This document shows, piece after piece, positions 78-11,162 of a DNA stretch of 64,000 nt (its first letter is position 1; every line of letters begins with the position of its first letter). A program made the position numbers and the translations under genes. The notes under the pieces were generated by a model. The model saw nothing but the letters and a program-made list of their open reading frames with translations. It was not told where the DNA came from and did not search any database. The DNA comes from Pontiella sp. (GTDB taxonomy: Bacteria; Verrucomicrobiota; Kiritimatiellia; Kiritimatiellales; Pontiellaceae): NCBI GenBank assembly GCA_050290185.1, contig JBNKHE010000001.1:322713-386712 (forward strand). Reading direction: 5' to 3'.

Positions 78-1025
78 CTATTGTTGGGCTTGCGGAACGG
101 GGCCGGACGGAGGCCCATCGCCGGGTTTGTTTTCCTGCATCGATTTCTGAAGAACTTTTTCGTCAATCTTGATATCCACCCCGTTTTTCAGTGTTTCCAC
201 ATAGGCTGCATAGGCCTCCGCACGCAGGTTGAGCTTCAGCTTGCGGGCAATCATGTTTTTAGCATCTTCAAAAGGGATCACCCGCCCATCCCGACGTTCG
301 GAAAGCTGAACCATATAGAAGGCCCGGTCCGTCTCAAACGGTTCCGAAACATCGTTTGGAGCAGCAAGTCCAAACAGGGTCTCAACCACTTGCTTCGGAT
401 AGCGCTTGTTTTCCCGGGCCTCGCTCAGCCAACTGCTCATTCCACCATTGGCGCGCGCCGAGGCATCGTCTGCATATTGCTTAACCACCTCCGCAAAACC
501 GGTTCCCTTTTCAAGGGCCGCAACGGCATCGTCAAAACGGGCCTTGCCCCCCTCGCGTTTCAGCACCATCAAGATACGCCCGCGCACCAGCGCCGGGTTG
601 CTGAATTCGTGCATGTTTGCATCGTAATAGGCCCGATACTGTTCTTCGGTCAGCGCCTCGGACTTTAACTTGGAATCCACTTTTTCCTTCACCAGCTTCT
701 GTACCGCCATCGACTTCATGACGCGGATAATTTCCGGATCATCCATGTAGCCCAGACGCTTCGCCTCGTTGGCCAGCAGTTCAAACGCAATCTCATCGTC
801 AACCGCCCGTTGCGTGGATGCCGGGTCGGAAAGGTCGTAGCCGTTCCGGGCCGCCGTTGAGCGCACGGCCTCAATCGAGATGTCCGTTTTTCCAACACGC
901 GCAACCGGTTCCGCCTGGATAAATGGAATCAGCGCGAGCATGATGAATAAGCAGGCAGGGATGCCTGCGGTACGTATCGTTGTTTTATGATTCTTCATTG
1001 TTTTTCCGTTTTCCTGCTCTGTCAT
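78..1025 (-). CDS. PpiC/parvulin-type peptidyl-prolyl isomerase-like foldase (SurA/PrsA-like), exported
   Basis: Hydrophobic N-terminus; VARVGKTDIS, ELLANEAKRLG, FAEVVKQYADDASARANGG and VSEPFET motifs typical of SurA/PrsA rotamases. Confidence 0.85.
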   Translation of the reverse strand: MTEQENGKTMKNHKTTIRTAGIPACLFIMLALIPFIQAEPVARVGKTDISIEAVRSTAARNGYDLSDPASTQRAVDDEIAFELLANEAKRLGYMDDPEIIRVMKSMAVQKLVKEKVDSKLKSEALTEEQYRAYYDANMHEFSNPALVRGRILMVLKREGGKARFDDAVAALEKGTGFAEVVKQYADDASARANGGMSSWLSEARENKRYPKQVVETLFGLAAPNDVSEPFETDRAFYMVQLSERRDGRVIPFEDAKNMIARKLKLNLRAEAYAAYVETLKNGVDIKIDEKVLQKSMQENKPGDGPPSGPVPQAQQ

Positions 1026-1102
1026 TTTTATTCCTCACAGAGTCCCGAAGCCCCAGAGTTTATTCTGATCGACTCTGCGCTCTCTGCGAGGGCTGGGTAC
1101 CC

Positions 1103-9716: not shown

Positions 9717-9794
9717 ATTCACTTTCCTCATTATACGTAACGTGTCGAATAGAATTTTGCATGTTGACAGTTCCCACACACACCATTCCATTCA

Positions 9795-11162
9795 TCATGG
9801 CTGGGGGATCATTTCACCATTAGAATCGATATAGATTCCATTAAAGACAGTGTTCGAAGAGTGGAAAAGAAGGCTTTCATAGGTAACCGGATGGGGATCA
9901 CTTCCATCCCCGGCATCGTACCACAAACCGTTATCCGTAGCGATCAACACAATTTTGCCTGCTTCTGGAACCATAGGATCCAACCACCGCACCGTTCCCT
10001 CGGTTGATACCAGTACCATCGGGCTGAGCGGATCGGTGCCGAAGGCGATCTCGTCTCCGTCGAACAGGCCATCGCCATCCGAATCGGGGTTCATTGGATC
10101 TGTACCGAACACGACCTCGTACCCATCGGACAGGCCATCGCCATCCGAATCGGGTTTCGTTGGATCGGTGCCGAGAATGAATTCCTCGAAGTTGGTAAGC
10201 GTGTCGCCGTCGAGGTCTTCCGCTGCGTCGGCGCTGTTGGCCGGGTTGAGGTGGTAGAACTCCTCGTAGAGGTCGGCCATGCCGTCGCGGTCGGTGTCGA
10301 CGCACAGCGCGGGAACGGGTATGACGAAGGAGGATGGCTCGAGCGCCGCATCGGAGATCGCCACTGCGTCGATGACGCCGAAGAACCGGTCGACATGCCG
10401 GTCGGTCCACATACCTCGGGACACGCTCCAGGTACCATAACCGATCCCTAGTGAAGTATCGGTGCCGGTGGTGGTCAGGTCAAGCGTGCCGATGACTGCC
10501 CCGTTGAGGTACAGCGAAAGGATCGCGCCGTCGCTGGCCGCGGCCACGTGGAGCCACACCCCCGCCTTCAGGCCGGCGGCCACCTGCAGGTTGTGTATGC
10601 CACCCTGAACGTCGGTATACTCGATCGCAAGATCGGTACCGCGCGTGGAGAGATAGAGCGCCGCCGAGTCACTGTTGTTGCCGCCCACATAGCGGCCGTC
10701 ACGTCCTATTATGGTGCAGTAGGAAACGAGGTTGGCGGACTTGAACACCGCCTCGACCGTCCACTGCGCAGGCGTGATGGCTTCGGCATCCGTTCCGGTA
10801 ATGTCGGGATTGAAGGCGGAGTCGGTTCCGGAAGCAGGCCAGGAATTATCGTATTGCATACTAAAATCCCCCTGAACGCTATCCGAACTCCACTTCATCC
10901 AAGATGAGGTCCATGCCGTCAGGTGGTTGCCGTTACCAGAGAGGTCGATCGCACTGATGCGAAAGTCGTCGGCGTCCATGGCCCCATCACCGTCCAAGTC
11001 ACGGCGCTCGCCGTTACCTAACATAAAGGCTCCCTCTACCGCATTTGTAGAGTTGAAATCCCAATACGCTATGGTCGAAGCTTGCGCAATGCCGCCTGCA
11101 CCCAACAAGGTCCAAACCAACATCAAACCAAAGGAAATAATCGCTCCCCCTACCCCTTTCAT
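9795..11162 (-). CDS. Secreted LamG-like jelly-roll protein with TSP3-like repeats
   Basis: Signal peptide; IAYWDF, DLSGNGNHL, WTVEAVF, WLHVAA..LYLNG, FFGVIDAVAISDAAL; DxDGDGLxD..GTDP repeats. Confidence 0.85.
   Translation of the reverse strand: MKGVGGAIISFGLMLVWTLLGAGGIAQASTIAYWDFNSTNAVEGAFMLGNGERRDLDGDGAMDADDFRISAIDLSGNGNHLTAWTSSWMKWSSDSVQGDFSMQYDNSWPASGTDSAFNPDITGTDAEAITPAQWTVEAVFKSANLVSYCTIIGRDGRYVGGNNSDSAALYLSTRGTDLAIEYTDVQGGIHNLQVAAGLKAGVWLHVAAASDGAILSLYLNGAVIGTLDLTTTGTDTSLGIGYGTWSVSRGMWTDRHVDRFFGVIDAVAISDAALEPSSFVIPVPALCVDTDRDGMADLYEEFYHLNPANSADAAEDLDGDTLTNFEEFILGTDPTKPDSDGDGLSDGYEVVFGTDPMNPDSDGDGLFDGDEIAFGTDPLSPMVLVSTEGTVRWLDPMVPEAGKIVLIATDNGLWYDAGDGSDPHPVTYESLLFHSSNTVFNGIYIDSNGEMIPQP
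10064..10154. repeat. Identical 25-bp direct repeat at 66-bp spacing (22-aa TSP3-like repeat units)
   Basis: ACAGGCCATCGCCATCCGAATCGGG at 10064-10088 and 10130-10154. Confidence 0.85.

Follow-up and report, generated by a model that had tools for sequence, protein, structure and literature searches.

Can a Tc toxin be built without its shell and leave the cell through the Sec pathway? This question is raised by a stretch of 64,000 nucleotides from Pontiella sp. (Verrucomicrobiota; GenBank contig JBNKHE010000001.1, positions 322,713 to 386,712), here called the window and equal to G000:C1 322713-386712, where G000 is this genome. Tc toxins are regarded as having a single architecture of shell, lock, knot and spring, and as dependent on lysis for their release. 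An earlier note, made from the letters of the window, proposed that six co-oriented genes at its left end encode a Sec-exported Tc-like apparatus. These genes are termed g1 (LamG) to g6; a seventh, g7 (BC), encodes a fused TcB-TcC protein at the window edge (Table 1). The operon proper is g2-g3-g4-g5-g6-g7, the cocoon gene g7 being an additional member and the LamG gene g1 lying outside it. The operon probably encodes a secreted Tc-like injector that would deliver the tail of g7 into a neighbouring microbe. It is a variant of the Tc kind and not a canonical Tc toxin, from which it departs in shell, linker and release.

The needle is g5, and its likeness to TcA is found in predicted structure. 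An AlphaFold model of amino acids 245-1112, made with an alignment of 74 rows (a subset fitted to the size limit), has a mean predicted local distance difference test score of 87.2 and a predicted template modelling (TM) score of 0.67. The model starts with a helical lobe and a coil of 17 residues; a helix of 55 residues, a hairpin (73 and 91 residues) and a beta domain follow. In a Foldseek search TcA chains fill the ranks to 23 (E 3e-13 to 5e-4), and the first non-Tc row has an E of 5e-4 and a probability of 0.23. In a structure comparison against 48,161 chains the top three are again TcA (Z 13.2, 13.0 and 12.3). Model residues 270-860 (amino acids 514-1104) superpose on TcdA1 2000-2516 in the pore state with Z 14.9 and 6.8 Å root-mean-square deviation (rmsd) over 452 aligned residues; model residues 654-860 fit the isolated TcB-binding domain (6l7i_A 2327-2516) with Z 8.6 and rmsd 4.8 over 148. 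With prepore entries, the alignments set in at model residues 29-51 and at TcdA1 1616-1758. The ten best named matches in the ESM Atlas are all PF18276, which is supporting only, as the recognition value is low. On the model, homology of g5 to TcA is very likely. The earlier claim that the C-terminal half of the 1112-amino-acid protein resembles TcA is thus supported by predicted structure; as for the TcA-like pore module, a channel and a TcB-binding end are indeed predicted, and the likeness is limited to the last third of TcA.

Which parts of TcA are kept and which are missing can be read from published domain boundaries (PMC6795518). The g5 protein covers the C-terminal half of the small lobe, the linker and the channel as well as the TcB-binding domain. 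It has no counterpart for the large lobe, the neuraminidase-like lock, the receptor-binding domains or the N-terminal knot partner (TcdA1 21-157); the helical shell of TcA is likewise not found, and ahead of the part that aligns from TcdA1 ~1616, g5 holds only a signal-like and PKD region. The channel segment is of full length, with 300 amino acids in g5 and a median of 306.5 over the 74 rows, compared with ~306 in XptA2 (PMC10487846). The linker is a 17-residue coil in the model, with a median of 20 residues and a range of 19-35 in the 74 rows. In XptA2 it comprises residues 2003-2050, i.e. 48 residues (PMC10487846), and no such stretched linker of ~48 residues, the entropic spring, is present in g5. 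A low-probability profile alignment with TcA ends places a 34-residue gap at the same point. The Foldseek fit is better to pore-state entries (rmsd 17 Å) than to prepore entries (37-48 Å), which agrees with a short linker and may instead reflect packing of the monomer model. The hairpin tip is the most variable part of g5, with 35-137 residues within the measured segment in the 74 rows. In four homologs (P0096, P0167, P0168 and P0173 of alignment A2) the tips carry long alternating Ser/Thr/Gly/aromatic runs and appear beta-hairpin-like rather than helical.

Several of these results weigh against the injector. Sequence and profile searches of Pfam, NCBIfam and the PDB gave no match that would show the TcA likeness of g5, and profile-profile comparison with three canonical TcA C-termini gave P 0.002 at a probability of 14% (reversed control, P 0.41). 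Z-scores run high where helices are long, as shown by the Z of 11.3 reached by designed bundles in the structure comparison of g5, and whole-query TM-scores in Foldseek are only ~0.3. PMC6795518 describes the stretched linker and the knot partner at the N-terminus as indispensable in every TcA; in g5 they are shortened or without a counterpart. With no significant sequence similarity between g5 and TcA, the resemblance could be a coincidence of long helices and a beta sandwich, in an operon that does something unrelated. This is very improbable: the order in which three independent segments match is that of TcA, the TcB-binding domain gives a match when taken in isolation, language-model features lead to PF18276 and a true TcB-TcC is encoded two genes away.

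That gene, g7, was found by reading the sequence left of position 1, where the earlier note had expected the cluster to continue; its first 34 bases are inside the window. The remark that no RHS/YD gene lies in the window is literally true because the window edge cuts g7 off, but a SpvB-RHS gene adjoins the left edge. The protein consists of a signal-like start, SpvB, an FG-GAP propeller, TcdB_midN, an RHS/YD shell, a GWNL insert, the Rhs core and a tail. Profile scans gave E 9e-30 for SpvB and 6e-29 for TcdB_toxin_midN, and the match to TcdB2-TccC3 has E 6e-58. The defining parts of TcB (SpvB, beta-propeller, midN) and of TcC (RHS shell, autocleavage motif with two aspartates, hypervariable tail) are all present. 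The motif PxxxxDPxG, from which cleavage is predicted, is accompanied by protease aspartates D2121 and D2144, 23 residues apart; those of TccC3 are D651 and D674 (PMC7861908).

The tail of g7, of ~248 amino acids, is low in guanine and cytosine (GC 0.44-0.45 in the last 300 codons vs 0.54-0.62 in the core). Tails differ among the loci of 13 homologous open reading frames (ORFs) that reach the core, GC being below that of the core in 13/13, and the near-identical loci L010 and L033, like L020 and L029, have unlike tails. Pfam scans of 11 tails found NlpC/P60 (L019) and Lipase_3 (L021) over the cut-off, a weak ADP-ribosyl cyclase (L056) and nothing convincing in eight. Several tails are Gly/Ala-rich and hydrophobic by eye. 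The tail of this locus has no Pfam match, and no homologs of it or of the 81-amino-acid ORF behind it were present in the protein set, the PDB or plasmids. An insertion sequence (IS)-type integrase follows g7 and this ORF. In six loci (L013, L016, L017, L020, L035 and L056) a gene that starts like the g2 N-terminal domain (PEPG/PEPA...YG) is located behind g7.

The operon is conserved elsewhere. Scans with the close g5 alignment detected 21 loci in 18 GTDB genomes and 31 metagenome loci, of which 40 are left after merging at 95% DNA identity. As the loci were found by g5, the counts are conditional on it; kin are not independent, and only flanks long enough were counted. Within 2.5 kb upstream of g5, g4 is present in 28/29 loci, and g3 is upstream in 21/23. 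The g2 gene is upstream in 5/12 and is also found between duplicated modules. The first recognised gene after g5 is g6 in 21/27 loci, g2 in two, g7 in one and none in three, and g7 follows g6 in 17/17 loci with room. Thus the co-occurrence in other genomes that was expected for these genes does hold, with the order beta-rich partner, fibre, TcA-like protein, parvulin and BC kept in most of the 40 loci, and the fibre and the parvulin are retained as system members. The 'lectin-like' LamG gene is not. It is present in 0/40 dereplicated loci, and paralogs with 57-70% identity occur elsewhere in the same genome; g1 was therefore rejected as a core member and is a lineage-specific passenger. One paralog, of 1578 amino acids, lies upstream of a separate SpvB-RHS-like gene of 2255 amino acids near an integrase-like ORF (G000 C10:109018-122514). 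The 18 carrier genomes are all metagenome-assembled and are labelled Kiritimatiellae, Lentisphaerae, Verrucomicrobia subgroups or 'uncultured bacterium'. The system is patchy, as close g5 occurs in G000 only among 401 genomes of the phylum and 89 of the order. At least 120 close homologs of g5 have 52-75% identity (144 matches among 7,990 scored candidates), and there are 200 matches at E <= 0.001 among 50%-cluster representatives and none in plasmids.

All subunits appear to be exported. The signal-like N-terminus claimed for each of the six window genes was found in all, with best 11-residue Kyte-Doolittle means of 1.96-2.96. In homologs, a start was counted as signal-like when a run of hydrophobic residues (10-residue mean >= 1.8) directly preceded the mature start; the rows were not dereplicated. 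Signal-like starts were found in 15/15 g2, 28/29 g3, 39/40 g4, 38/40 g5, 30/30 g6 and 20/20 g7 proteins, or 170/174 homologs vs 70/1156 control windows. Canonical Tc toxins are released by lysis through the type 10 secretion system and are without signal sequences, according to PMC10847048. Cytoplasmic folding without a signal peptide followed by holin/endolysin release is, by hydrophobicity, not the pattern seen here. Four secretins score over the cut-off in the genome and would offer a type II-like exit.

Partners of the needle include a beta-rich protein, a fibre and a parvulin. The g3 protein carries two GWNL repeats, an immunoglobulin (Ig)/BACON domain, an 8-stranded streptavidin-like barrel, a P-domain, a transthyretin-like domain, PKD and a tail that is conserved and low-confidence in a model with a mean score of 85.8. 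Fold searches with g3 found only generic beta domains, with no part of the TcA shell among the matches listed; since the model is almost wholly beta, g3 is unable to supply the helical lobe. In one protein, P0164, the g3 domains including the tail are fused directly to the TcA-like module in a single polypeptide. By analogy this suggests that g3 holds the place of TcaA/YenA1 in split TcAs and contacts g5.

The fibre g4 is likely the targeting part. Its match to NF053851 (E 2e-4) is under the cut-off, and g4 itself has no Pfam tip. Among 26 homologs scanned (22 from GTDB and 4 distant proteins, metagenome ones being left out), the tip is a phage tail Collar in 19, Kelch in three and none in four; 22/26 match MAT_N at E <= 0.01 and none scores above the cut-off (best 40 of 60 bits).

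Two smaller exported proteins complete the set. PrsA and SurA act in periplasmic folding; g6 is likely a dedicated foldase, and a conserved exported parvulin fits folding in the periplasm. The C-terminal profile of g2 matches four other proteins of the genome, all within <= 2 amino acids of the C-terminus. It is possible that g2 is an adaptor or export tag and its C-terminal domain a lineage-specific sorting signal. The same domain (window 8868-9100) recurs in secreted proteins at C1:269061-303037 and C3:82801-85161.

As a secreted injector, the operon would work as follows. Each subunit would cross the inner membrane unfolded via Sec, and the g6 parvulin would help it to fold in the periplasm; with such export and folding, lytic release would not be needed. 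The g7 protein would fold into a closed RHS cocoon and cut its tail off at PxxxxDPxG, leaving the toxin caged. The g5 protein would assemble as a ring, with five-fold symmetry if the analogy holds, and its beta domains would bind the g7 propeller, while the all-beta g3 would replace the missing helical shell and receptor domains and the g4 fibre would pick the target. Upon binding, the hairpin tips would enter the membrane and the tail would thread through. Because the linker has ~30 residues fewer than that of TcA and the neuraminidase-like lock is missing, the needle would make a short stroke or hardly move. A second g3-g4-g5 module, flagged in 8/40 loci (one, L030, is a split gene plus a fragment), might provide two delivery heads for one cocoon.

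Relatives of the needle also occur in other settings. In two distant classes the modules are likened to TcA indirectly, through profile homology to the g5 module. Proteins of ~3000 amino acids, reached through weak matches, end in a homologous module (hhalign 99.3%, E 3e-20, 622 columns). This distant module is found in 56/401 genomes of the phylum (14%), TcB midN in 12 of the same 401 and both in five. In six genomes that were read, a g2-like gene, a parvulin gene and, at the place of g7, a gene for a giant protein of 3,657-4,431 amino acids come after the TcA-like gene (G054 C1:1856-1885k; G066 C22:288-317k; G104 C68:91-118k; G107 C8:203-221k; G138 C1:451-480k; G194 C1:393-420k). Profile matches place a GWNL gene and a 600-amino-acid gene ahead of four of the six. 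Three giants that were scanned are Big_9/cadherin (Ig/cadherin) proteins with no RHS, two of them with FG-GAP repeats. L079 (G081 C9:1.9-17.2k) is a distant full system with a TcA-like protein of 1348 amino acids, three collar fibres and a BC fusion of 2186 amino acids, and no parvulin was found in the stretch. Needle, adaptor and foldase are shown to be the constant part.

These distant classes lend the strongest support to a rival reading as a surface appendage or a platform for adhesion, in which a static g5 stalk displays whatever large protein is encoded behind the parvulin, and the tail is freed at contact or taken up without passing g5. The giant adhesin-type proteins at the g7 place, RHS-free in the three scanned, agree with it, as do the short linker and missing lock of g5. 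There are Sec-exported YD shells for which no delivery machine is known (PMC13018210), and such release or uptake has been proposed for teneurin-like proteins. At this locus, however, g7 retains the SpvB/propeller/midN architecture that gates TcA, g5 is predicted to have a channel that is not shortened and ends in a hydrophobic tip, with the TcB-binding fold retained, and the tails are polymorphic enzymes. An appendage is accordingly thought unlikely here.

The third class consists of two genes, for a beta-rich partner of 1100-1780 amino acids and a TcA-like protein of 950-1100, homologous to the g5 module (99.9%, E 2e-36) and found in seven genomes of this genus (loci at G383 C138:28.8-37.1k; G404 C314; G405 C5:436-443k; G447 C2:1304-1310k). 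No SpvB match was found in three of the four genomes tested (G383, G405 and G447). Such loci would be expected if g5, with g3 and g4, were itself a pore-forming toxin and g7 an independent polymorphic toxin that shares its operon, export route and foldase. The 7-8/40 loci with two g3-g4-g5 modules per one g7 point the same way, as does the variation of the hairpin tips, which are 35 to 137 residues long and in some cases show Ser, Thr and Gly in alternation. The invariant position of g7 behind g5-g6 (17/17 loci with room) and the cocoon-binding fold predicted to be retained in g5 speak against it, and this explanation is improbable. The earlier note had left the choice between an injection or membrane-attack machine and an appendage; the injector is favoured, and a cocoon-less machine or appendage is less likely at this locus because the operon includes a TcB-TcC cocoon whose toxin tail varies.

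Other findings on the unfavourable side concern the cocoon and its tail. No cocoon was detected in 51 of the 56 genomes with distant g5 relatives, and SpvB-RHS genes without a TcA-like neighbour occur on C10 of this genome and in G134; relatives of needle and cocoon thus occur separately, and the two parts can therefore work apart. In the tail of this locus, TNT is among the ESM look-alikes (6/30 matches, score 0.93) with recognition under the mark, so that a TNT-like NADase is a weak lead only. Tc toxins are described as having no immunity gene (Song et al.). This locus has the overlapping 81-amino-acid ORF, but none convincing was found behind the 13 other tails. In canonical Tc toxins missing immunity genes have been argued to point to eukaryotic targets (PMC7861908), and by analogy the present lack leans that way. 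The NlpC/P60 peptidoglycan hydrolase-type cargo and the phage-type fibres lean towards bacterial targets. Bacteria and microbial eukaryotes are about even as targets of the system.

The injector shares with Tc/ABC toxins (TcdA1-TcdB2-TccC3, XptA, YenTc, TcaA-TcaB) the predicted channel, the TcB-binding domain and part of the small lobe in g5 and, in g7, the SpvB/propeller/RHS cocoon, the aspartyl autocleavage motif and the hypervariable tail. It differs in a TcA-like sequence of ~870 amino acids vs ~2500, with no large lobe, neuraminidase-like domain or receptor-binding domains, in a linker of 17-20 residues vs 48 and in B and C being fused. Signal-like N-termini replace lysis through the type 10 secretion system (PMC10847048), and the parvulin, the beta-rich partner and the phage-type fibre are additions. 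According to PMC7861908, 96.4% of catalogued TcC are proteobacterial, B-C fusions being excluded from that survey; the present system is from Verrucomicrobiota. With Bdellovibrio MAT fibres (NF053851) and phage tail fibres (Collar, PF07484) g4 shares a conserved beta-rich domain right after the signal peptide and a variable tip (PMC10769870). It differs from MAT fibres in MAT_N scores below the cut-off and in being hard-wired into a Tc-like operon; in Bdellovibrio the MAT N-domain is taken to attach the fibre to another element, whose identity is not known (PMC10769870).

Bacterial teneurin-like proteins also have a Sec-exported YD shell and a polymorphic toxic tail (PMC13018210). In g7, however, SpvB/FG-GAP/midN and not FN-plug/NHL precede the YD shell (TEN_NHL gave no match in g7 at E 0.1), and where those proteins have no known delivery machine, a candidate one is encoded at this locus. 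Rhs effectors of type 6 secretion systems display the same Rhs core, autocleavage motif, variable tail and small downstream ORF, but g7 is without a PAAR match, its N-terminus is signal-like and followed by SpvB, and VipB was not found in this 95.5% complete genome. Umbrella toxins and tailocins or extracellular contractile injection systems are likewise secreted multi-protein particles with separate targeting and toxin genes. Umb1 is in the Foldseek list of g5 at E 3.6e-3 only, and no core common to this system and these particles was shown.

As to the locus itself, the six ORFs, the TAATG overlap at 8868 and the domain content, by Pfam scan, are as the earlier note described them. A public sequencing run, which may be the source of the assembly, contains a 17,693-nt contig that extends from the RHS tail to the LamG gene inclusive without any difference. 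Flanking ORFs look like glycoside hydrolases, an IS integrase and housekeeping genes, beside tRNA-Pro, and no holin was recognised among them, as had been noted for the window, nor anything endolysin-like (by eye except for the integrase). A genomic island was considered, as similarity to 18 loci of relatives ends at tRNA-Pro, yet no att site was found. The sole long repeat, an exact 25-nt sequence at window 11621-11645 and C1 249471-249495, 85 kb apart, is the hairpin behind tRNA-Pro and not an att site, and therefore no integration scar is shown. Left of the window, between the toxin locus and C1 250k, lies a large cluster of secreted glycoside hydrolase-like genes (C1:255-313k, by eye). No RNA data containing the locus were found.

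Table 1. Features at the locus. Coordinates are positions in the window unless contig C1 of G000 is named; lengths are in amino acids.
Feature	Coordinates	Strand	Remarks
g1 (455)	9795-11162	-	LamG + TSP3_bac; adjacent and co-oriented, not a conserved part of the system
g2 (307)	8868-9791	-	N-terminal beta domain, TSP3_bac, C-terminal domain; start probably M21 or M26
g3 (947)	6025-8868	-	all-beta chain; BACON_2, P_proprotein, CarboxypepD_reg, PKD; positional stand-in for N-terminal TcA half
g4 (388)	4688-5854	-	fibre; no Pfam domain; N-terminal domain conserved, with weak likeness to Bdellovibrio MAT_N; C-terminal tip variable
g5 (1112)	1103-4441	-	signal-like start, PKD region to ~244, then TcA-like module; Pfam PKD
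g5, 245-511	2909-3709	-	helical lobe; aligns with C-terminal half of TcA small lobe
g5, 512-528	2858-2908	-	short conserved linker; coil between model helices 251-267 and 285-339
g5, 529-828	1958-2857	-	long helical hairpin, predicted channel; tip near 695-698 Gly/Ala-rich, variable
g5, 898-1112	1103-1750	-	beta domain; matches TcB-binding domain
g6 (315)	78-1025	-	exported parvulin-type peptidyl-prolyl isomerase (PrsA/SurA-like); Rotamase_2, E 4.5e-15
g7 (2395)	C1 315559-322746; window 1-34	-	fused TcB-TcC; starts 43 nt after g6 stop
81-amino-acid ORF	C1 315321-315566		overlaps g7 stop, in low-GC patch; candidate immunity gene
tRNA-Pro	11656-11732	-	upstream boundary; similarity to relatives begins here and extends rightwards only

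In the literature searched, subscription papers and supplements such as the dbTC tables being outside its scope, no description of a Sec-exported or Verrucomicrobiota Tc-like system was found. Unnamed look-alike clusters of g5 are commonest in Myxococcota, Pseudomonadota and Verrucomicrobiota, the taxonomic range of distant homologs being read from ESM Atlas clusters only. It may be speculated, as a tentative proposal, that a widespread family of Sec-exported machines in Verrucomicrobiota, likely also in Myxococcota and others, has gone undescribed and is built around the TcA needle. Its payload slot would take either a giant adhesin or, as here, an RHS cocoon together with a phage-type fibre; the insecticidal Tc toxins would then form an armoured, lysis-released branch, and the minimal spring-less form would be an antibacterial injector. 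If the injector is real, it would be a conserved natural form reduced to the needle, in which the linker is far shorter, export is by Sec and the fibre is a separate protein, and would bear on which parts injection needs. Such a form would also be a lead on the origin of TcA. It would provide a candidate delivery route for RHS toxins that bear signal peptides, and might offer a setting in which the MAT N-terminal domain, so far unexplained, makes sense. A further pointer is to a TcA-like family without a cocoon, present in 14% of the sampled Verrucomicrobiota genomes and missed by current Pfam models.

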